Part shown: positions 18,002 to 62,875 of the stretch, one piece after another
Layout: the number at the start of each line of letters is the position of its first letter
Numbering within the stretch: position 1 is the first letter of the stretch
Assembly (NCBI RefSeq): GCF_022846255.1
Contig: NZ_AP025682.1
Source of the DNA: Escherichia coli
GTDB lineage: Bacteria > Pseudomonadota > Gammaproteobacteria > Enterobacterales > Enterobacteriaceae
Length of the DNA stretch: 64,000 nt
Reading direction: 5' to 3' (one strand)
Position numbers and translations under genes: made by a program
Notes under the pieces: model-generated
What the model saw: only the letters and a program-made list of their open reading frames with translations
The model's database searches: none
What the model was told of the DNA's origin: nothing

Positions 18002-18562
18002 CTATTGTGCGGTCGGCTTCAGGAGAGTCTGACCCGGTGTTTTGTGCTCTGCCAGATACTGATGCTGGAATATACACATGCGAATGGCATTACGATATTG
18101 ACCATTAATAAAGAACTCATGCATCAATTCACCTTCAACCGTAAAGCCAAGCTTGCGGTAAATGTGAATCGCTTTTTCATTCTCTTTATCAACGATCAGA
18201 TACAGCTTATAGAGATTGAGAACGGTGAAGCCATAGTCCATTGCTAATTTGGCGGCACGGGTTGCCAGACCTTTCCCCTGATACTCTGGGGAGATAATTA
18301 TCTGAAATTCTGCGCGGCGATGAACATGGTTAATTTCCACCAGCTCCACCAGACCGGCTTTTTCGCCGTCACATTCCACCACAAAGCGCCGTTCGCTCTG
18401 ATCGTGAATATGCTTATCATACAGATCAGAGAGTTCAACAAAGGCTTCGTAGGGTTCCTCAAACCAGTAACGCATCACACTGGCGTTATTGTCGAGTTGA
18501 TGTACATAGCGTAAATCTTCACGCTCCAGCGGGCGTAGCTTAACACTGTGGGCGCTTGGCAT
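18002..18562 (-). CDS. speG: spermidine N1-acetyltransferase SpeG
   Basis: 186 aa GNAT acetyltransferase; sequence recognised as SpeG. Confidence 0.95.
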
Positions 18563-18596
18563 AACGTGTCCTTACATTCCTTAAATCAATAACAGG

Positions 18597-28943: not shown

Positions 28944-29449
28944 ACACCACCAATGGCTGGCCTGGATTTATCGCCAGACCAGCTTCGTTATAGCAGTAAT
29001 TGCAGCAACTGGGCGAGGGCAAACTTCACCGCTAATGCGAATGCCGTTTCGCAGTCGCCAGCAAAATTACTTTTTTTGTATACTCTTCCGTTATAATAAT
29101 TTTCAAATTCAGCCGGACCAGATGATCAACATTAGCGGCAGTCTGGATAAGAAAAGCGCGCCGGCCGTCGTTCGGGTCACTCAGTTGCAGAAATAAAAAT
29201 AAATTAGCCTGATGGCCTGAACTACTGGGCCATTAGGGTATTGGGTTATGCTATTTGTCATCCTTTTAATTGCGATAATGCAGAGTTAATTTATAGAATT
29301 AAACACTTTTTTATCTGCTGATTTTGTTTTAAATCACAATGTTATCTCAGAGATGCTCATAACTCCGGATTTCTATGAAAATATTGACGTAATTTTGCTT
29401 TTCTCTCGTTAGAATAGCGCGCACAAGGAACTGTGAAAAAGGAGTGGCA

Positions 29450-30340
29450 ATGATCAAGAAGACAACGGAAATTGATGCCATCTTGTTAAATCTCAATAAG
29501 GCTATCGATGCCCACTACCAGTGGCTGGTAAGTATGTTTCACAGCGTGGTCGCGAGAGATGCCAGTAAGCCAGAAATAACGGATAACCATTCTTATGGGC
29601 TGTGCCAGTTTGGTCGGTGGATTGATCATCTGGGGCCACTCGATAACGATGAATTACCTTACGTTCGGCTAATGGATTCTGCCCATCAACATATGCATAA
29701 CTGTGGTCGGGAATTAATGCTGGCTATTGTTGAAAATCACTGGCAGGACGCGCATTTCGACGCTTTTCAGGAAGGGTTGCTTTCTTTTACTGCGGCATTA
29801 ACCGATTACAAAATTTATTTGCTGACGATCCGTAGCAGTATGGATGTTCTGACGGGATTGCCGGGTCGTCGGGTTCTTGATGAATCCTTCGATCATCAGT
29901 TACGCAATGCTGAACCTCTGAATCTTTATTTAATGTTGTTGGATATAGACCGATTTAAATTGGTTAATGATACCTACGGGCATTTAATCGGCGATGTAGT
30001 ATTACGCACCCTCGCAACTTACTTAGCCAGTTGGACGCGCGATTACGAAACGGTTTATCGCTACGGGGGCGAAGAATTTATCATTATTGTCAAAGCGACT
30101 AATGATGAAGAAGCATGTCGTGCAGGTGTCAGAATTTGCCAGTTAGTCGATAACCATGCCATCACACATTCTGAAGGGCATATCAACATTACCGTGACTG
30201 CTGGTGTGAGTCGTGCATTTCCTGAAGAGCCTCTGGATGTGGTCATTGGAAGAGCGGACAGGGCAATGTATGAGGGTAAGCAAACCGGAAGGAATCGCTG
30301 CATGTTTATTGACGAACAAAATGTGATTAACCGAGTTTAA
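29450..30340 (+). CDS. dgcZ: zinc-sensing diguanylate cyclase DgcZ (YdeH)
   Basis: 296 aa; N-terminal CZB domain, C-terminal GGDEF with GGEEF motif. Confidence 0.9.
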   Translation: MIKKTTEIDAILLNLNKAIDAHYQWLVSMFHSVVARDASKPEITDNHSYGLCQFGRWIDHLGPLDNDELPYVRLMDSAHQHMHNCGRELMLAIVENHWQDAHFDAFQEGLLSFTAALTDYKIYLLTIRSSMDVLTGLPGRRVLDESFDHQLRNAEPLNLYLMLLDIDRFKLVNDTYGHLIGDVVLRTLATYLASWTRDYETVYRYGGEEFIIIVKATNDEEACRAGVRICQLVDNHAITHSEGHINITVTAGVSRAFPEEPLDVVIGRADRAMYEGKQTGRNRCMFIDEQNVINRV

Positions 30341-30350: not shown

Positions 30351-30374
30351 ACATTCATTGAGAAAACTGATGCT

Positions 30375-30483
30375 ACTGTGTCAACGATCCGTTATCAGTG
30401 CAGGAAAATGCCTGTTAGCGTAAAAGCAAAACACAAATCTATCCATGCAAGCATTCACCGCCGGTTTACTGGCGGTTTTTTTT
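30375..30483 (+). ncRNA. mgrR: candidate MgrR small RNA (5' end approximate)
   Basis: Roughly 100-nt + strand interval between a PhoP-box-like repeat and a strong intrinsic terminator; K-12 encodes the PhoP-dependent sRNA MgrR between dgcZ and mgtS (memory); 5' end not determined. Confidence 0.45.
30458..30483 (+). terminator. intrinsic terminator, 3' end of candidate MgrR
   Basis: 7-bp GC-rich stem CCGCCGG/CTGGCGG with 4-nt loop followed by T8. Confidence 0.7.
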
Positions 30484-30490
30484 CGCCGTC

Positions 30491-30531
30491 ATAAAAATCA
30501 GGCCCCTTGTACACAACTGTAACAAGGGGCC
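30491..30531 (-). terminator. intrinsic terminator after mgtS
   Basis: 10-bp perfect stem GGCCCCTTGT/ACAAGGGGCC; on minus strand followed by TGATTTTTAT. Confidence 0.6.
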
Positions 30532-30558
30532 GGTTAGGTGAGGGATTATCTCCGTTCA

Positions 30559-30654
30559 TTAGTCATCCCATTTGTGGCTGAAATACGCGGCCAGAAACCC
30601 AGAAAATAAAATTATTCCCAGTACGGCCATAAAAACATTCATATTACCCAGCAT
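30559..30654 (-). CDS. mgtS: small membrane protein MgtS (YneM), 31 aa
   Basis: Hand translation of minus strand: MLGNMNVFMAVLGIILFSGFLAAYFSHKWDD with GGAGG 6 nt upstream of ATG; recognised as MgtS; below ORF-track cutoff. Confidence 0.8.
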   Translation of the reverse strand: MLGNMNVFMAVLGIILFSGFLAAYFSHKWDD

Positions 30655-51747: not shown

Positions 51748-52038
51748 TCACGGCATCAACCCATTGAACAGACGTTTTTTACGCGGCCCGGTCATTAAAG
51801 ATTCCAGTTTTGCGACACAGGTTTTGTAGTGGGGCGTGGTTTTATGGAATGCCACTGCGTCTTCATCTTTATAGGCTTCGTAGATATAAAAGCGCGAATT
51901 CACTTCCGGGTCCTGTAAGACATCGAAGCGCAAATTGCCTTCTTCCTGTACAGAGCCCAGGTGGTTCTGGCGAAAAACTTCGATAAACTCGTCAACCTTG
52001 TCTTCATGAACGTTAATTTCAACCAGTGTGACGTGCAT
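51748..52038 (-). CDS. lsrG: AI-2 degradation enzyme LsrG
   Basis: 96 aa from [18 protein letters not shown]; AAGGAGAAG Shine-Dalgarno upstream. Confidence 0.9.
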
Positions 52039-52060
52039 GTTTCTTCTCCTTAATCCGCAG

Positions 52061-52936
52061 TTACTGTTTTTCACTCAGATAGAGTTCATATGCCCGATCA
52101 GCCGTTTCGTTATGGTGTACCACCGCCTGTACGGCTTTCATCATCGCCACCGGATGGTCAGACTGGAAAATATTACGCCCCATATCCACACCAGAAGCGC
52201 CCTGATCGATAGCCTGCCAGCACATTTCCAGCGCCTCGCGCTCCGGTAATTTTTTACCGCCAGCAATGACAATGGGTACCGGACATCCGGCAACAATCCG
52301 TTCAAAACCTTTATCGACATAATAAGTTTTGATAATCTGCGCCCCCATTTCAGCGGCGATTCGAGTCGCGAGCGAGAAATAACGTTGGTCGCGCACCATA
52401 TCTTTGCCCACGCCAGTGACGGCCATGGTCGGCATTCCCGCTTTCATTCCGGCATCGACCAGCTGAATAATATTTTTGATCGACTGATGTTCATATTCGC
52501 TGCCGATATAAACCTGCGCCGCCACCGCGCAACTGTTCAGGCGCACGGCATCATCCATCGATAACGCCACGGCTTCATTACTTAATTCCGCCAGAATAGA
52601 GTTCGCACCTGACGCCCGCAGTACCACCGGCTTATTGGTCGCAGGGGGGACTACGCTGCGCAAAATACCGCGCGTACACATTAATACATCGGCATGTTCA
52701 AACAGCGGGGCGATATTTATATCAATGCGTTCAAGTCCGGTAGTCGGCCCCTGAAAATAACCATGATCAAAGGCCAGCATCACGGTTTTACCCGTTTTCG
52801 GATTAAATATCCGCGATAAGCGTGACTGCATTCCCCAATCCAGTGCACCGCAACCTTTCAGGGTAAAAGGGATATTTTTTTGCGGTTGATCGGTACGAAA
52901 ATCTTTACCATCTTTAATATCGTCTAAATCTGCCAT
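52061..52936 (-). CDS. lsrF: phospho-AI-2 thiolase/aldolase-family enzyme LsrF
   Basis: 291 aa, DeoC/class I aldolase family. Confidence 0.9.
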
Positions 52937-52962
52937 AACGTACTCCGGTTAAGTAATGCACA

Positions 52963-53985
52963 TCAGAAATCGTATTTGCCGATATTCTCTTTGTTGAATA
53001 TCACGCGCTCCGGTAACAGTACGATGCCATTACCATCCGCTTCGTAGTCATAGCCCTGAACGCTGTTTGGCGAGACTTCCACCTGACCTACGCCCTGAAT
53101 ATCCAGCTTGTCGCCCGTTTTCATTGATCCTTTTTTCAATAATGCATCCGCGACATAAACTGATATTTTGCCTTGCTGAACCACATCCCACAGGCCAAAT
53201 TCTTTCACCGTGCCGCGTTCCACATATGGACGCATCACGTTTGGCGTACTGAATCCGACAATCGCAACTTTGTCATTTTTCAGGTTTTCTGCGGCTTGTG
53301 CGGCAGCGGGCAGGGCATTGGCATCGGGGGCGATAATGGCGTCGAGATCGCTATAGGCTTTTAATATTCCTTCTGCGGTTTGTAACGATTTAGTGGCATC
53401 GTTATAGCCAAACTGCGTAGTGACAATTTCCCAGCCTGGATGCTCTTTGGCGATTTTCGCTTTCGCTTCTTTCACCCACTGGTTTTGGTCCGTAACGGTG
53501 GGGCTTGAGTAGAAAAACGCGACTTTGGCTTTGTCTTTATTCACCTGACGCGCCGCCATATCCACCAACATACCTCCCAACTGGGCGGGCGTTCCCTGAT
53601 TAATGTAGTAAGAGCGGCACTCCGGTTTAGTATCAGAGTCCCAGGTCAGCACTCTCACACCACGTTGCATGGCGCGTTTCAGTGCCGGACACAAGCCATC
53701 AGGCGAAACCGCAGAAACGATAATGGCGTTATACCCCTGATTGACGAAGTTATTAATCAACTGTACCTGACCAGAAACACTGGGTTCTGTCGGCCCGTCG
53801 TAGGTCACATCAACGCCCAACTCTTTACCCGCTTGTTGTGCGCCGTTGCCACCGCTGGTAAAAAATCCCACGCCAACCAGTTTGGGAATAAATGCAATAC
53901 GCTCTGCCGCCTGCACATTCATAGAGATTACGGCAATGCCAAGCGCGCTAAGTAAGGCGATTTTCTTAAAGCGATGAAGTGTCAT
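52963..53985 (-). CDS. lsrB: AI-2 periplasmic binding protein LsrB
   Basis: 340 aa with signal peptide. Confidence 0.92.
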
Positions 53986-53996
53986 GAAGATATCCT

Positions 53997-54989
53997 TTAT
54001 GGCAATGGGTTATTGGCCCGACGCGCCAGCCACTCTTTAATTTGCTGGCGATGCAGGCTAACGGAACGACCTACGACAACGACGATAAGTAGCGCACCGG
54101 AAAGGGCGCTGGACACCTGATTTGGCACTCCTGCCATTTGCAAACCTTGTTGCAAATATCCCACTAATAAAACCGCTATGGCGGTGCCGATAATGGAACC
54201 AGAACCACCATAAATATTGGCACCGCCGAGCACTACGGCGGTGATGGCGGGCATCAGAAACGACGCACCGAGATCGGAACGTGCTGAACCAAAATACGAT
54301 ACCAGCAGCACAGCGGCGACCGCAGACGCCAGCCCCGTCATGGCATAGAGCGCACACAAGGTGCGGTTAACTGGAATCGCGCTATAAACCGCCACACGCG
54401 GGCTTTGCCCAATTAAAAACACGTTACGTCCGGCATGGGTTTTATGCAGCCAGAGCCAGAAAACGAGGAGACATATCAGGAAGATAATCAGCGGAACGGG
54501 GAGCCCCAGCACATCCAGGTTAGCGAAATCTGTAAACGCCATCGGGAATCCACCAATACCTTCGTACCCCGTCGCTCCGGCCATCCCGGAAAGCAGCAGG
54601 GCGCTTCCGGCAAACAGATACAGCGTGCCAAGCGTAATCACCAGCGGGTTAACTTTGGTATAGATAATTAATCCGGCGTTGATCAGCCCGCACAATGCGC
54701 CGAGCAGTAAGGTCAGAAGAATCGCCAGCGGCATCGGCACACCACTTTGAAACAGTACGCCCAATGCAATGGCGCAGAGGCCGATGGTCGAACCAAACGA
54801 AATATCGATCCCACCACTGACAATCACCATCGTCAGCGGTAGGGCGACAATGCCAATGCAGATAAAGTCACTGGTGCTGAACAGCAACATATTGAGATCT
54901 AACATCCGCGGGTTAATTGCACCAAATGCGACAATCTCAATAACGAGCAGTGCGGCAAGAGCCAGTTCCCAACCGTAGCGAATACGCAT
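53997..54989 (-). CDS. lsrD: AI-2 ABC transporter permease LsrD
   Basis: 330 aa multi-TM permease. Confidence 0.9.
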
Positions 54990-56017
54990 TATGCAGCCTC
55001 CCGTTTTTTACCTGACGAAGCGGGTTTAACGGATGGCGGAGGCGTCATAAAGCGGGCATATTTTTGCCGCCGCAGATTACGTTCCAGCGCACAACGCAGG
55101 CGTCCATCAAACACCAGCACCGCCAGCAGAACCAGGCCCGCGATAAAATCGTTCCACCATGCCGGAATGCGCAACAGCACCAGTACACTATCGATCTGCG
55201 TCAGGAACCATGCGCCGAGTACCGCACCGATGATCGCACCGGAACCGCCGAGCAAACTAATGCCGCCCAGCACGCAGGCTGCAATTGCTTTCATCTCCAG
55301 CCCGGTACCGGTCTGGTTGGGGATAAAACCAATCTGCGAAGCAAACACAATTCCCGCCACTGCCGCCATGCAGCCGTTCAACGAAAATGCCACAATGCGA
55401 ATGGCTTCCGTACGAACGCCCAGTTGACGAGCGCCCTGTAAATTATCGCCCGTGGCATAAAAACTGCGTCCAAACGCCGTCTTCGCCAGCAGCCAGGCCA
55501 TAAATGCCACCAGAATTATCGTCAACCAACCAATCGCGGAAACGCCAAACAGCAGCGGGGCAGAGAGTTGTTTCAGTTCGGCGGGTAATCCCTCAATCCA
55601 TTTACCGCCAGTCCACAGCAACATGATGCCTCTGTACAACCCTAACGAGCCAAGGGTGGCGACAATGGCAGGGATCTTTAGCCACGCGACCAGGACACCG
55701 TTGAAAAATCCCGCGAGCAAACCAAGCAGTAGAGTCGCGACACAAGCAACAGGTAGTGAATACCCCGCGTTCAGTAACATCCCCAACAGCACCGCGCACA
55801 TTCCGGTAATCGAACCCACTGAAACATCAATATTGCGCGTAAGCATTACCAGCGTCGCGCCCATTGCCAGCAGGATCAGGATTTGCGCGCTGCTATAAAC
55901 CATGGTCAGCGTTTGCACACTTAAATACTGACGGTCGAGAAAACCGGGTAATACAAACAGCAGCACCACCGCCAGCAGTGCCGTGATTTCACGGTTGTTC
56001 TGGATAAACTTCAGCAT
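54989..56017 (-). CDS. lsrC: AI-2 ABC transporter permease LsrC
   Basis: 342 aa multi-TM permease. Confidence 0.9.
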
Positions 56018-57546
56018 GACGCCTCCTGACGCTGACTATCTCCGAAGGCAACGCGCATAATGGTCTCGACATTAATATCGCGCCCGGTCAGTGCAGAGTG
56101 GGCAATTTCGCCCTGATGCATCACATACACGCGATCTGCCATCAGTTCGATCTCTTCGAGATCAGAGGAGATAAGCAGCACAGCCACATTCTGTGCGGCG
56201 ATGCTGCGCAACAGTTGGTAGATATCATTACGCGCCGAGACATCCACGCCGCGCGTCGGCTCATCGACAATCAATACTTGCGGCGAAGCTTCCAGGCATT
56301 TGGCAATCAGGATTTTTTGCTGGTTGCCACCGGATAATGTCCGTGCAGCTTGTTCCGGTTGGTTAAATTTAATATTCAGCGCCCGACGATATCGTTCCAG
56401 GGTGGCATTATCTTTCGCGGTTTTCGCCCAGAATCCACGAAGGTTATGAGTAAGGGCGCAGACGTTCCAGGCCAGCGAAGCATCGAGATTCAGTCCGGAT
56501 GACTGGCGATCTTCCGGCAGATAAACCAGACCGCGCAGTAAACGTTCTCCGGTGGATAATCTATTGATATCTTTACCATTCAGCATAATGCGTCCGCCAC
56601 GCAAAGTACGCAGACCATAGAGCGTCTCGGCCAGTTCTGTGCGTCCGGCTCCCACCAGTCCAGCCAGGCCCAGAATTTCTCCGGCATTGAGCGTCAGGCT
56701 GACATTCCTGAAACCTTCGCCGGTCAGATTTTCCAGTGTCAGCACCGGCGTTCCGGCGGCATGTTGTGGGCGGTTGCCAGGTAATTCCAGCCATAATTTT
56801 TGGCTGGCAGAGAGCGATTTTTCCCGTAGCGCTGGCGTGATGGCCTGAATAATGTCGTCGGTAGACAGTTCGCTGGTTTTGCCGCTTAAGGCGATGGTTC
56901 CGTCGCGCATCACGCTAATCCGATCGGCAATCTGGCGAATTTCCGGCAGCTTATGCGAGATAAAAACAATACCCACGCCAGTAGCAAGCAGCTCTTGCAA
57001 GCGACTAAACAAGCGTTCGGTTTCCGCAGGGGTAAGCGAGGCGGTAGGTTCATCGAGGATCAGAATCTGCGAGTCGCGCATCAGCCCACGGAGGATTTCC
57101 ACCATTTGGCGATCGGCGACATCCAGCGATCCTGCCAGACTATGCAGATCAAACTGGCAGCCCAGCGCCACCAGCAAGTTATTCATTTTCTGTATGGAGA
57201 GTTGTTTTTTTGCCAGACCAAACAGGATGTTTTCTTTTATCGACAGGCTTGGAAAAAGCAGCGGTTCCTGGGGAACGAGATAAATGCCCAGCTGATGAGC
57301 ATGAACTGGCGTTAATCTGGTGTAGTTGTTGCCCCCAATCTCCAGCGTACCGCTATCAGCAGGGGTAATACCGGCAATAATCTTCATTAACGTCGATTTA
57401 CCGGCACCATTGCCGCCGAGCAGTGCGTGGACCTCCCCCTGATGCAACGTAAAATCGATGCCTTTCAGGACATTAACCCCTGAATACTGTTTATAAACCG
57501 AGCGGGCGCAAAGTAGCGGTAACGCGCGGGTATCACTCGTTTGCAT
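56011..57546 (-). CDS. lsrA: AI-2 ABC transporter ATP-binding protein LsrA
   Basis: 511 aa with two ABC cassettes (Walker [10 protein letters not shown] and GLVGAGRTE). Confidence 0.92.
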
Positions 57547-57710
57547 ATTTCCCCCGTTCAGTTTTGCAGGTGAGTTTTGAACAAATGTATTTCTGCTTTT
57601 AATTTGTTCATAACCTTAGGTGGACATTGCACATATTTCCGACGAATAGATCACAATTTATGCTATTTTGATTTTCACGGTTGCGTTTGTTCATGCTCGT
57701 AGAGTCAAAC

Positions 57711-57726
57711 TGTGGTTGCTATCACA
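57711..57726. promoter_or_regulatory. CRP-site-like sequence in the lsrA/lsrR divergent intergenic region
   Basis: TGTGG-ttgcta-TCACA, near match to TGTGA-N6-TCACA. Confidence 0.45.
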
Positions 57727-57794
57727 GATATAAATGCGCAAGAACTGAACAATTGCATTAAAGATTTAAATATGTTCAAAGTGAAGAATGAATT

Positions 57795-58748
57795 ATGACA
57801 ATCAACGATTCGGTAATTTCAGAACAGGGAATGTGTGAAGAAGAACAGGTCGCGCGGATTGCGTGGTTTTACTACCACGACGGGCTGACCCAGAGTGAGA
57901 TCAGCGATCGTCTCGGCCTGACCCGTTTGAAAGTGTCGCGATTACTGGAGAAAGGGCATCAATCCGGCATTATTCGCGTACAGATTAATTCACGCTTTGA
58001 AGGCTGTCTGGAATATGAAACACAATTACGTCGTCAGTTTTCGCTGCAACATGTCCGGGTGATCCCAGGGCTTGCGGATGCTGATGTCGGCGGGCGACTA
58101 GGGATAGGCGCGGCGCATATGTTGATGAGTTTACTTCAACCACAACAGATGCTGGCGATTGGTTTTGGCGAGGCAACCATGAATACGCTGCAACGCTTAA
58201 GTGGTTTTATTTCGTCACAGCAAATTCGCCTGGTCACGCTCTCCGGTGGAGTCGGTTCTTATATGACGGGTATCGGGCAGCTTAACGCGGCGTGCAGTGT
58301 GAATATTATTCCGGCTCCGTTGCGGGCATCCTCCGCTGACATTGCCCGTACGCTAAAAAATGAAAATTGCGTCAAAGATGTTCTGCTAGCCGCGCAAGCA
58401 GCGGATGTGGCGATTGTCGGCATTGGGGCTGTGAGTCAACAAGACGACGCAACAATCATTCGCTCCGGCTATATCAGCCAGGGCGAACAGTTAATGATTG
58501 GTCGAAAAGGGGCGGTTGGCGACATTTTAGGCTACTTTTTTGATGCAAAAGGTGACGTTGTCACGGATATCAAAATACATAACGAACTGATTGGCTTACC
58601 TTTAAGCGCGCTGAAGACCATACCCGTCCGGGTTGGCGTGGCAGGGGGAGAAAATAAAGCCGAAGCAATTGCCGCTGCAATGAAAGGCGGTTATATCAAC
58701 GCACTGGTTACCGATCAGGACACAGCAGCGGCGATTTTACGTAGTTAA
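57795..58748 (+). CDS. lsrR: lsr operon repressor LsrR (SorC family)
   Basis: 317 aa, N-terminal HTH. Confidence 0.92.
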
Positions 58749-58826
58749 ATTTGCATGACCTTGTTACCGGGAATGATGGAGAACGTATAGAGGAACAGAC
58801 AGAACGCATAAGCCGAGGATAATCTA

Positions 58827-60419
58827 ATGGCTCGACTCTTTACCCCTTCAGAATCAAAGTACTACCTGATGGCGCTGGATGCAGGCACCGGAAGTATTAG
58901 GGCTGTGATATTCGACCTGGAAGGCAATCAAATAGCCGTGGGACAGGCGGAGTGGCGGCACCTGGCAGTACCGGACGTTCCTGGTTCTATGGAATTTGAT
59001 CTCAACAAAAACTGGCAACTGGCGTGTGAGTGTATGCGCCAGGCGCTGCACAACGCCGGCATAGCCCCGGAGTATATCGCTGCCGTTTCGGCATGTTCGA
59101 TGCGCGAAGGCATTGTTTTATATAACAATGAAGGAACACCGATCTGGGCCTGCGCCAATGTGGATGCCAGAGCGGCACGCGAAGTTAGCGAACTTAAAGA
59201 ACTGCACAACAATACCTTTGAAAACGAAGTTTATCGAGCGACCGGGCAAACGCTGGCTTTAAGCGCCATCCCCAGATTACTTTGGCTGGCGCACCATCGT
59301 TCCGATATTTACCGTCAGGCATCAACCATCACCATGATCAGCGACTGGCTGGCCTATATGCTCAGCGGCGAACTTGCGGTGGATCCCTCTAACGCTGGCA
59401 CCACGGGACTTCTTGATCTAACCACCCGTGACTGGAAACCTGCATTGCTGGATATGGCTGGCCTGCGTGCCGATATTCTTTCTCCTGTCAAAGAAACCGG
59501 CACATTGCTGGGTGTGGTAAGTTCACAAGCGGCGGAACTCTGCGGTCTGAAGGCGGGCACTCCGGTGGTCGTTGGAGGAGGTGACGTGCAGCTTGGTTGC
59601 CTGGGGTTAGGCGTTGTACGTCCGGCACAAACCGCGGTTCTTGGCGGCACATTCTGGCAGCAAGTTGTAAACTTAGCCGCGCCGGTGACAGACCCAGAAA
59701 TGAACGTGCGCGTTAATCCCCATGTTATTCCTGGCATGGTACAAGCTGAATCTATAAGCTTTTTTACCGGACTCACCATGCGCTGGTTCCGCGATGCTTT
59801 CTGTGCCGAAGAAAAACTGATTGCCGAACGTTTAGGCATCGACACCTATACGCTGCTGGAAGAGATGGCCAGTCGGGTGCCGCCTGGGTCGTGGGGCGTA
59901 ATGCCGATATTCTCCGACAGAATGCGCTTTAAAACCTGGTATCACGCTGCGCCTTCCTTTATTAACTTGTCCATTGACCCGGATAAATGTAACAAAGCGA
60001 CATTGTTCCGTGCGCTGGAAGAAAATGCGGCGATTGTATCAGCGTGTAACTTACAGCAAATTGCTGATTTCTCGAATATTCATCCCACCTCGCTGGTTTT
60101 TGCTGGCGGAGGTTCAAAAGGGAAATTATGGAGTCAAATTCTCGCTGATGTCTCGGGATTACCCGTCAATATTCCGGTGGTCAAAGAAGCCACTGCATTA
60201 GGATGTGCCATTGCAGCTGGCGTCGGTGCCGGAATTTTTTCATCAATGGCAGAAACCGGAGAACGCCTGGTTCGCTGGGAACGGACGCACACACCAGACC
60301 CGGAAAAGCATGAACTTTATCAGGATTCACGCGATAAGTGGCAGGCAGTTTATCAGGATCAGCTGGGGCTGGTTGATCATGGACTGACGACGTCGTTATG
60401 GAAAGCGCCAGGGTTATAG
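58827..60419 (+). CDS. lsrK: autoinducer-2 kinase LsrK (FGGY family)
   Basis: 530 aa, FGGY carbohydrate kinase family. Confidence 0.92.
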
Positions 60420-60502
60420 TTTCATTGACAGCCACACCATGATGACCGTGGCTGTTAGTTTTTGAGTATTGGTATTCTCATTTCCCTTCTTTTAGAGCTG
60501 GC

Positions 60503-62800
60503 TTGTTAAATGCCAGCTTGCAGATTCATCGTTCCATCACCAGTACTATATTCAAGGGGAAATTGCTATTCACGCTGATCAATGCGCTCAAAGGCGATGG
60601 CTTGATGCGAGTGCAGCTGTCATCCTCCGACAAAATGTTTGGCTTTACCCATGCAGCAGGGACTGAATTCGCCGGTGTTGCCCAACTGAAAGCCAGTACC
60701 TTCGCACTGGAACGCGACAACACCGCTGCGCTTACTTACGCGATGCTGCAGTCTGACAGTGAAAATACCACATTGGTAAAAGTGGGAGAGCAATCCATTG
60801 GTGGACTAGCCATGAATGGCGGTACGCTCACGTTCGATACGGATATACCTGCTGCGACGCTTGCGGAGGGATATATCAGCGTCGATACGCTGGTTGTCGG
60901 CGCGGGTGACTACACCTGGAAAGGCCGTAACTATCAGGTAAACGGGACGGGCGACGTGCTTATCGACGTGCCTAAACCGTGGAATGATCCCATGGCGAAT
61001 AACCCTCTGACGACGCTCAATTTTATGGAACACGACGATAGCCATGTCGGCGTTCAACTGGTGAAGGCGCAAACGGTTATTGGATCGGGTGGTTCATTAA
61101 CGTTACGTGATTTACAGGGCGACGAGGTGGAAGCGGACAAAACGTTACATATTGCGCAAAACGGAACGGTGGTCGCCGAGGGTGATTATGGATTCCGACT
61201 CACGACCGCACCTGGTGATGGTTTGTATGTTAACTATGGGCTGAAAGCGCTGAACATCCATGGTGGGCAAAGCTGACGTTAGCCGAACATGGCGGAGCCT
61301 ATGGCGCAACGGCCGATATGTCGGCAAAAATCGGTGGCGAAGGGGATCTGGCAATCAATACGGTACGACAGGTTTCGCTTTCCAACGGTCAGAACGACTA
61401 TCAGGGGGCAACCTACGTTCAGATGGGGACATTACGTACCGATGCGGATGGCGCGCTGGGCAACACCCGGGAACTGAACATCAGCAACGCGGCCATCGTC
61501 GATCTTAATGGATCGACCCAGACGGTAGAGACATTCACCGGGCAAATGGGTTCGACTGTTTTGTTTAAAGAGGGGTCGCTGACGGTGAATAAAGGTGGGA
61601 TCAGTCAGGGCGAACTGACAGGTGGCGGAAACCTGAATGTTACAGGGGGAACACTGGCTATCGAGGGGCTTAATGCACGCTACAATGCGTTAACCAGCAT
61701 TAGCCCAAATGCGGAAGTCAGCCTCGATAATACGCAGGGGTTAGGCAGAGGAAATATTGCCAATGACGGTCTGTTAACGCTAAAAAATGTGACCGGCGAA
61801 CTGCGTAATAGCATAAGCGGGAAGGGTATCGTGAGCGCAACCGCCAGGACAGACGTAGAGCTGGATGGCGATAATAGCCGCTTTGTGGGGCAATTCAACA
61901 TATACCGGAAACAATGGCCTGATGACGTTCAACGCGACGCTGGGCGGCGATAATTCACCCACGGATAAAATGAACGTGAAAGGCGATACCCAAGGGAACA
62001 CTCGCGTTCGGGTTGATAACATTGGCGGCGTCGGTGCACAAACGGTCAACGGTATTGAACTCATTGAGGTTGGCGGTAATTCTGCAGGTAACTTCGCGCT
62101 GACCACCGGAACTGTCGAAGCTGGGGCTTACGTCTACACGCTGGCTAAAGGGAAGGGGAATGACGAGAAAAACTGGTATCTGACCAGTAAATGGGACGGC
62201 GTAACGCCACCGGATACACCAGATCCCATCAATAATCCTCCTCAGCTGGGCGCTGTATAACTGGTTTGATAACAGCGTCAGTTCCGATAACCGTTCTGCT
62301 GACGACTATGATTCTCGCGGTGTGACGGCCTCTGTTGAGGGTGGGTATACCTTTGACGGGGAACATTTAGTGGCAGCGAAGGGACGCTGAATACCTGGTA
62401 CGTCCAGCCACAGGTGCAAATCACCTGGATGGCTGTGAAAGATTCTGACCATACCCGGAAAGACGGAACACGCATTGAAACGGAAGGTGACGGAAACGTG
62501 CAAACGCGACTTGGGGTGAAAACCTACCTGAACAGTCATCACCAGCGTGACAATGGTAAACAGCGTGAGTTCCAGCCTTACATTGAAGCGAACTGGATCA
62601 ACAACAGCAAAGTCTACGCCGTGAAGATGAATGGTCAAACTGTAAGCCGTGATGGTGCGCGTAATCTCGGTGAAGTACGTACCGGGGTTGAGGCGAAAGT
62701 AAATCACAACCTTAGCCTGTGGGGGAATGTCGGTGTGCAACTAGGTGATAAAGGCTGTAGCGATACTCAGGGCATGCTGGGTGTGAAATATAGCTGGTAA
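60503..62800 (+). pseudogene. yneO: autotransporter adhesin remnant (yneO/ydeK-like), 5'-truncated and multiply frameshifted
   Basis: Four + strand track ORFs in different frames (60503..61276, 61318..61953, 61865..62260, 62414..62800); Gly/Asn-rich passenger-like repeats; last fragment ends ...LGVKYSW typical of autotransporter beta-barrels; no signal peptide at 5' end. Confidence 0.7.
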
Positions 62801-62808
62801 ACCGTATA

Positions 62809-62842
62809 AGCCGCATGTCGAAGATGCATGCGGCTTAATATT
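62809..62842 (+). terminator. stem-loop after the autotransporter remnant
   Basis: 9-bp stem AGCCGCATG/CATGCGGCT followed by TAATATT. Confidence 0.5.
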
Positions 62843-62875
62843 GCCGACTTCAAACGACTTTTAAATCCTCCTTTT

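Follow-up and report, generated by a model that had tools for sequence, protein, structure and literature searches.

Background

The leaders of glgC, pgaA and cstA, which are repressed by CsrA, share with that of dgcZ (ydeH) an A(N)GGA motif over the Shine-Dalgarno sequence together with further motifs upstream, and in these cases, as with dgcZ, the ribosome is blocked and the mRNA is destabilised. The pgaA mRNA has six CsrA sites and the glgC mRNA has four. The dgcZ leader belongs with these multi-site CsrA-repressed leaders and is unusually compact, being far shorter than the other three (29 nt) and carrying only two leader sites, both of which are the optimal AAGGA. Another close comparison is ycdT (dgcT), which like dgcZ encodes a GGDEF diguanylate cyclase, is directly repressed by CsrA at its leader and was described in the same original study; ycdT is reported to have a single site near the Shine-Dalgarno sequence, whereas dgcZ has two. 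The primary study of dgcZ, by Jonas in 2008, reportedly saw ydeH mRNA rise more than 10-fold when csrA was mutated and observed specific gel shifts with the ydeH leader; it is not known to include a footprint. The high-affinity CsrA ligand reportedly selected by SELEX by Dubey in 2005 is RUACARGGAUGU, with the GGA in a hairpin loop. In E. coli, the dgcZ leader is one direct link from the Csr carbon-storage and lifestyle regulator to c-di-GMP signalling, and it sets the timing of DgcZ synthesis and thereby of PGA-dependent biofilm versus motility.

The view that dgcZ is a CsrA-repressed mRNA with sites around the Shine-Dalgarno sequence, which was also that of the preliminary description of this locus, is supported by published work (PMC4066749, PMC10294631, PMC5694010, PMC6028588). 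The ydeH transcript is listed among experimentally validated CsrA-repressed mRNAs as one with multiple sites around the Shine-Dalgarno sequence, set against the single-site ycdT, in a study that counts ACGGA as a primary CsrA site type (PMC4066749). CsrA directly represses the translation of two diguanylate cyclase mRNAs, dgcZ among them (PMC10294631), and both the translation efficiency and the mRNA stability of dgcZ are altered in a csrA mutant (PMC5694010). That CsrA binds the ydeH leader directly is cited in PMC4066749, PMC10294631 and PMC13131220, and the last of these attributes two CsrA sites on dgcZ mRNA to RegulonDB. The two GGA motifs of the dgcZ leader match the two CsrA sites already recorded for this gene in the literature, and we claim no novelty for them. 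Leaving aside the primary study of Jonas 2008, a nucleotide-level footprint, toeprint or GGA mutagenesis of the dgcZ leader was not found in the accessible literature. An entry for dgcZ or ydeH is absent from the text of the Potts 2017 CLIP-seq supplement in the form available, which is uninformative because that text is possibly incomplete.

Results

Identity and genomic setting of the gene

The window, i.e. the whole stretch of 64,000 nucleotides of E. coli DNA that was analysed, contains the following gene.

29450..30340 including the stop codon, plus strand: dgcZ (ydeH) coding sequence, zinc-sensing CZB-GGDEF diguanylate cyclase (RefSeq, Pfam, NCBIfam)

The gene at this position is dgcZ. 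Its product scores 521 bits against the NCBIfam equivalog NF007380 (cutoff 256) and contains the Pfam domains CZB (residues 22-89, 31 bits) and GGDEF (residues 130-283, 154 bits). RefSeq gives the identical sequence of strain CFT073 the name dgcZ and starts its coding sequence at the equivalent of window position 29450. Positions 29200-29600 match E. coli CFT073, Nissle 1917, ABU 83972 and other B2-type strains at 100% identity; of 5426 complete E. coli genomes, 5383 contain the segment, annotated there as dgcZ. The window strain is likewise a B2-type E. coli. Since the whole window is 99.1% identical to CFT073 over positions 1-51810 and diverges beyond, the strain is a close relative of CFT073 and not CFT073 itself.

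Compared with E. coli K-12 ydeH/dgcZ, the sequence is identical from approximately 75 nt upstream of the transcription start site (TSS) through the start codon. The two AAGGA motifs, the 29-nt leader and the gene are all as in K-12, the leaders agree base for base with zero differences, and further upstream there are a 1-nt indel and a few SNPs. Intact ydeI and ydeJ are absent upstream of dgcZ in the window strain, unlike in K-12. That the leader is intact and identical in a B2-type (uropathogen- or probiotic-like) strain indicates conservation of the known circuit and nothing beyond it.

The dgcZ transcript

29421..29449, plus strand: dgcZ 5' untranslated leader of 29 nt, GCACAAGGAACUGUGAAAAAGGAGUGGCA (PMC6028588 supplement, exact match to the window)

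The ydeH/dgcZ mRNA modelled by Leistra et al. 2018 (5' UTR plus 100 nt of coding sequence; PMC6028588 supplement) begins with GCACAAGGAACTGTGAAAAAGGAGTGGCAATG and has a 'Position Transl. Start' of 30. Through this secondary source, the published mRNA start GCACAAGGAAC places the dgcZ TSS at 29421, which is NC_000913.3 position 1623879 in K-12. When the published sequence was compared by script with the window from 29421 onward, a single difference was found, a synonymous one at 29530. The preliminary description had named a TSS lying 3' of the first GGA as the result that would speak against it, and this is not what the literature gives. With its 29-nt leader, the published mRNA starts at 29421, 6 nt before the first GGA, which occupies +7..+9 of the mRNA, so that with a TSS taken from this secondary source both AAGGA motifs lie on the transcript. 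The reverse primer 'dgcZcsrARev', used for fusions in enteropathogenic E. coli (EPEC) that were meant to leave out the CsrA sites, ends at 29422 (+2), consistent with the same start, as are the TAGAAT and TTGACG hexamers described below.

Sequence and position of the GGA motifs

29425-29429, plus strand: putative CsrA site 1, AAGGA (mRNA +5..+9, -25 relative to the ATG; sequence and PMC6028588 model)
29439-29444, plus strand: putative CsrA site 2 and Shine-Dalgarno sequence, AAGGAG (AAGGA at 29439-29443, -11 relative to the ATG; sequence and PMC6028588 model)
29465-29469, plus strand: candidate third ANGGA motif, ACGGA (codons 6-7, +16 relative to the ATG; script)

Direct reading of positions 29400-29459 gave tttctctcgt tagaatagcg cgcacaagga actgtgaaaa aggagtggca atgatcaaga, i.e. 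a dgcZ start region of ...cgcgc ACAAGGAACTGTGAAAAAGGAGTGGCA ATG. The ATG itself is at 29450-29452, the annotated start in the 100%-identical CFT073 record. Direct reading and a script both located the first GGA at 29427-29429 in AAGGAAC and the second at 29441-29443 in the Shine-Dalgarno AAGGAG, exactly where the preliminary description had put them. By script, they lie at -23 and -9 with the ATG as reference and at +7 and +21 when counted from the literature TSS, and a third GGA was located at 29467-29469, within the ACGGA of codons 6-7.

An A(N)GGA motif overlaps the Shine-Dalgarno sequence in dgcZ, as AAGGAG at 29439-29444, 6 nt before the ATG. The distance from GGA to GGA is 14 nt, which falls within the 10-63 nt published for bridging by one CsrA dimer; if the distance is taken instead as the gap between the AAGGA pentamers, its 9 nt would be marginal.

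In the biophysical model of Leistra et al. 2018, CsrA is placed on dgcZ at -25 and -11 (PMC6028588), which are the AAGGA at 29425-29429 and 29439-29443 of the window. Repression of dgcZ is predicted by this model in 15 of the 15 lowest-energy conformations, and it groups dgcZ with six other mRNAs whose two high-affinity sites lie close together and require minimal unfolding. The model prefers the -25/-11 pair, with strong cooperativity, and an alternative site at position 16, equivalent to the ACGGA at 29465-29469, occurs among its dgcZ conformations. The assignment of these exact pentamers as putative CsrA sites rests on database curation and this model. Judged by sequence, the motif pattern is a good match to that of a CsrA target, short of proof.

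Folding of the leader and reporter fusions

29422..29435, plus strand: weak 5'-proximal hairpin with a CACA/UGUG stem and a 6-nt loop, AGGAAC, that contains the first GGA (MFE folding)

Structure prediction, which the preliminary description had proposed as a check, placed the first GGA in a hairpin loop, which resembles the presentation favoured by CsrA; the hairpin itself proved no more stable than shuffled sequences. It consists of 4 bp with an MFE of -2.8 kcal/mol (z-score -0.1 against shuffles, not significant), and it was kept in folds of 32, 50, 80, 100 and 200 nt and lost in the 129-nt MFE fold. In E. albertii a U-to-G change breaks the closing A-U pair, in E. whittamii a U-to-A change does so, and the E. 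whittamii hairpin additionally has one C-G to U-G change. The ACAAGGA of site 1 fits the ACARGGA of the SELEX ligand, and its flanking ACA...UGU can pair with the GGA in the loop. Compared with that ligand, the dgcZ loop is 2 nt longer, and its 4-bp stem is not significantly stable.

Both leader motifs are accessible in the predicted folds. Site 1 has a mean P(unpaired) of 0.82-0.92, site 2 with the Shine-Dalgarno sequence has 0.41-0.99, varying with the length of sequence folded, and the candidate ACGGA has approximately 0.9. The unfolding cost of freeing both sites is 1.3-5 kcal/mol. The first GGA lies in the loop of a weak 4-bp hairpin whose closing pair is not conserved, and the second is mostly unpaired.

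A structured riboregulator in the dgcZ leader was considered and rejected, as no fold was more stable than those of shuffled controls (z-scores from -0.55 to +0.8). In Rfam, no cis-regulatory family was found over the leader; the matches were the downstream MgrR/STnc560 sRNA and one at chance level (E = 0.28).

In EPEC, cat fusions that carry the leader are nearly silent and those that lack it are active, in an experiment that had no csrA mutant control (PMC13131220). EPEC is a B2 strain and the primers of that study match the window perfectly; by primer mapping, the silent fusions include 29423-29448 and the active ones end at 29422. Such leader-dependent silencing could in principle have a cause other than CsrA, such as pairing with an sRNA, an RNase site or masking of the Shine-Dalgarno sequence by the early coding sequence, with the GGA motifs being incidental. 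The last of these would fit the folds of 80-200 nt, in which GGAGUGGCA pairs with UGCCAUCUU of the coding region and the P(unpaired) of the Shine-Dalgarno sequence drops to approximately 0.4, and the missing csrA control leaves room for all three. However, the EPEC fusions end at 29448 and are silent without the coding partner, the dgcZ folds are no more stable than shuffles, and no report of an sRNA regulating dgcZ was found in the literature searched. We regard a cause of this kind as very improbable, and CsrA as the agent to be preferred.

Conservation

Positions 29416-29455 are identical in 5196 of 5382 E. coli records, and the remainder differ by one base; one of these variants alters only the base immediately 3' of the first GGA. 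Among the matches listed, the full-length relatives of DgcZ were from E. coli, E. albertii and E. whittamii, and the other matches were GGDEF proteins of approximately 30-40% identity. The leader alignment accordingly comprised six Escherichia sequences from three species. Both AAGGA pentamers and the ACGGA are invariant in these six sequences, the ACGGA being under coding constraint. Four other leader positions are variable among the three species, including the closing pair of the hairpin; the chance that all four would miss the pentamers, calculated from the alignment, is approximately 0.16. Because the leader is nearly invariant throughout, conservation of the pentamers is weak or uninformative evidence, and with only three species and so invariant a leader neither covariation analysis nor phylogenetic footprinting is possible.

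Motif frequencies

At window frequencies, the Poisson probability of at least two GGA in 29 nt is 0.044. At least two GGA in the 30 nt before the start were found in 12 of 63 annotated genes (19%) of the homologous CFT073 stretch, and two upstream GGA are common among these neighbours because Shine-Dalgarno sequences contain GGA. Two AAGGA/ANGGA pentamers upstream were found for dgcZ and speG only among the 63 genes. The probability of a second AAGGA, given that the Shine-Dalgarno sequence is AAGGA, is approximately 0.014. A single AAGGA-N9-AAGGA is present in the window, where 0.11 would be expected, and AAGGA pairs 3-30 nt apart number 2 window-wide against 2.4 expected, i.e. without enrichment. 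The bare GGA pair in the dgcZ leader is therefore not beyond chance, and the pentamer pair is rarer. Motif enrichment was rejected as a proof of function, given AAGGA pairs at the chance rate and GGA pairs in 12 of the 63 genes. As sequence statistics do not establish function, the functional case rests on published experiments.

These frequencies bear on two other accounts of the leader. The first holds that the Shine-Dalgarno motif is the sole functional CsrA site and that the AAGGA at +5..+9 is fortuitous or minor. Single-site CsrA targets are known (ycdT, hfq), site 1 is separated from the 5' end by only 4 nt and lies in a weak hairpin, and site-specific mutagenesis of the dgcZ leader was not found in the accessible literature. 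Nevertheless, a second exact AAGGA is expected in the leader by chance with the low probability given above, and this upstream motif is invariant in three Escherichia species and in the 5196 records. The grouping of ydeH with the multi-site targets, unlike ycdT (PMC4066749), the two sites attributed to RegulonDB in PMC13131220 and the preference of the model for a cooperative -25/-11 pair over a single site (PMC6028588) likewise point to two sites. We consider one functional site unlikely and favour control through both.

The second account sees an ordinary Shine-Dalgarno sequence with a GGA present by chance, and CsrA control that is mainly indirect, through transcription, e.g. via CpxR or other regulators. 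It can draw on the 19% of neighbouring genes with at least two upstream GGA, on the chance rate of AAGGA pairs across the window and on the csrA51 mutant, in which ydeH mRNA is raised and a promoter-only ydeH-lacZ fusion is raised as well (PMC4844966), so that CsrA acts in part indirectly, at the level of transcription. Set against this are several papers in which CsrA is reported to bind the ydeH leader directly and specifically and to repress translation (PMC4066749, PMC10294631, PMC5694010), the altered translation efficiency of dgcZ, and not of mRNA level alone, in a csrA mutant (PMC5694010), and the silencing of the EPEC reporter fusions by inclusion of the leader (PMC13131220). That control is mainly indirect therefore seems highly improbable to us, and direct control at the leader is retained in what follows.

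Proposed mechanism

We are confident that this is the known CsrA-controlled initiation region of dgcZ, in which a CsrA dimer on the two leader AAGGA motifs would occlude the ribosome binding site and hasten decay. Transcription from 29421 would yield a 29-nt leader in which two optimal AAGGA motifs are spaced by 14 nt, with site 1 in the loop of the weak hairpin very near the 5' end and site 2 being the Shine-Dalgarno sequence itself. A CsrA homodimer would bind both motifs, and we infer that a single dimer probably bridges exactly these two pentamers. Binding would then occlude the ribosome binding site, presumably as the primary event, and block initiation, and the untranslated dgcZ mRNA would decay faster. 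The literature cited above supports the steps in which CsrA binds the leader directly, represses dgcZ and destabilises its mRNA. Titration of CsrA by CsrB/CsrC (or McaS) would allow DgcZ to be made and c-di-GMP to rise, which would favour PGA-dependent biofilm over motility.

A speculative extension, which we hold to be unlikely, is that CsrA at the 5'-terminal site 1 gates RppH/RNase E decay and that the ACGGA at 29465-29469 is a third site. If site 1 did gate 5'-end-dependent decay, this would explain the strong destabilisation of dgcZ mRNA and also the silencing of cat fusions that have their own ribosome binding site. A third site at the ACGGA would offer alternative bridging between the Shine-Dalgarno sequence and the coding region.

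Promoter region

29410..29415, plus strand: probable -10 hexamer of the dgcZ promoter, TAGAAT (reading of the sequence)
29384..29398, minus strand: CpxR-box-like sequence GCAAAATTACGTCAA, GTAAA-N5-GTAAA with 2 mismatches (pattern search)
29384-29389, plus strand: TTGACG hexamer overlapping the CpxR-box-like sequence, 20 nt from the -10 hexamer

A consensus promoter scan did not call the dgcZ promoter, since the TTGACG lies 20 nt from the TAGAAT, beyond the standard -35 spacing. The sole candidate offered by the scan was an upstream TTGCGA-18-TAGAAT at 29270-29299, for which no support was found, and it was set aside. The TAGAAT at 29410-29415 ends 5 nt before the literature TSS and is invariant in E. 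coli, E. albertii and E. whittamii; it is the probable -10 element of dgcZ.

A CpxR site for dgcZ is attributed to RegulonDB in PMC13131220. At 2 mismatches, the CpxR-box pattern gave 81 matches against 59 expected, and because such matches are frequent the sequence at 29384-29398 is only consistent with that site. The overlap of the TTGACG with the CpxR-box-like sequence is consistent with an activator-dependent dgcZ promoter, although matches of this kind are common.

Variation at the dgcZ translation start

A natural disruption of the dgcZ start was found in the bovine isolate E. coli ERL06-2503 (NZ_CP032795.1; positions 2501-2540 of record L084). This single isolate carries a 9-bp deletion, GTGGCAATG, equivalent to window positions 29444-29452, which removes both the spacer between the Shine-Dalgarno sequence and the start codon and the dgcZ ATG itself. 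The annotated CDS start is an ATC following the deletion. Judged from its sequence, this dgcZ is probably a natural expression-null or hypomorphic allele. A single mismatch in the 40-nt leader segment (29416-29455) was found in 186 E. coli records; in one example, E. coli MDP9-27 (record L085), AAGGAA is changed to AAGGAT at the equivalent of window position 29430, directly 3' of the first GGA, which is left intact.

ANGGA motifs in dgcZ and other genes

The following features were located near gene starts:
29465-29469, + strand: ACGGA, a third ANGGA motif, in dgcZ codons 6-7
18560-18592, - strand: speG translation initiation region
46721 onward, + strand: second GGDEF gene, annotated in CFT073 as 'sensor domain-containing diguanylate cyclase'

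ACGGA follows the AAGGA of the Shine-Dalgarno sequence at a distance of 26 nt and is predicted to be unpaired (about 0.9). The motif is invariant, although coding constraint acts on the same bases. The published CsrA model for dgcZ includes it as an alternative site (PMC6028588). The preliminary description did not list this motif.

Among the 63 annotated genes of the homologous CFT073 stretch, only speG, besides dgcZ, carries a pair of AAGGA motifs immediately before the start (AAGGAATGTAAGGA, 18569-18582). These are spaced 9 nt start-to-start, below the 10-nt minimum reported for dimer bridging, and speG is absent from the 236-mRNA list in the supplement of the CsrA binding model (PMC6028588). 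The second GGDEF gene, flanked by uxaB and yneG, has one AUGGA in the 30 nt upstream, and no AAGGA pair was found in that region.

Genomic surroundings of dgcZ

The following features flank dgcZ:
28988-29068, - strand: ydeJ/ydeI relic, 81 bp, pseudogene fragment per CFT073 annotation
29107-29196, + strand: ydeJ/ydeI relic, 90 bp, pseudogene fragment per CFT073 annotation
29270-29299, + strand: candidate promoter TTGCGA-18-TAGAAT, consensus-like, from sequence match
30352-30565, + strand: MgrR, an Hfq-dependent sRNA (Rfam STnc560, 281.9 bits), with MgrR proper at 30386-30483
30457-30476: terminator at the MgrR end

Intact ydeJ and ydeI sit between dcp and dgcZ in K-12 and O157, whereas the B2-type window sequence has just short relics of them, and the dgcZ promoter therefore adjoins a deletion scar. 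Despite this scar, identity with K-12 is unbroken from about -75 through the dgcZ ATG. The candidate promoter precedes the accepted dgcZ TSS by ~120 nt and, if active, would give rise to a longer dgcZ leader.

MgrR lies on the same strand as dgcZ, ~46 nt past its stop codon, and is 100% identical to K-12 mgrR over the 94 nt compared. Beyond it, mgtS and a frameshifted mgtT occupy the opposite strand.

The window is collinear with CFT073 to 51810 at 99.1% identity. For the following ~11 kb (51811-62858) the matching part of CFT073 gives no alignment, which points to a strain-specific insertion or replacement.
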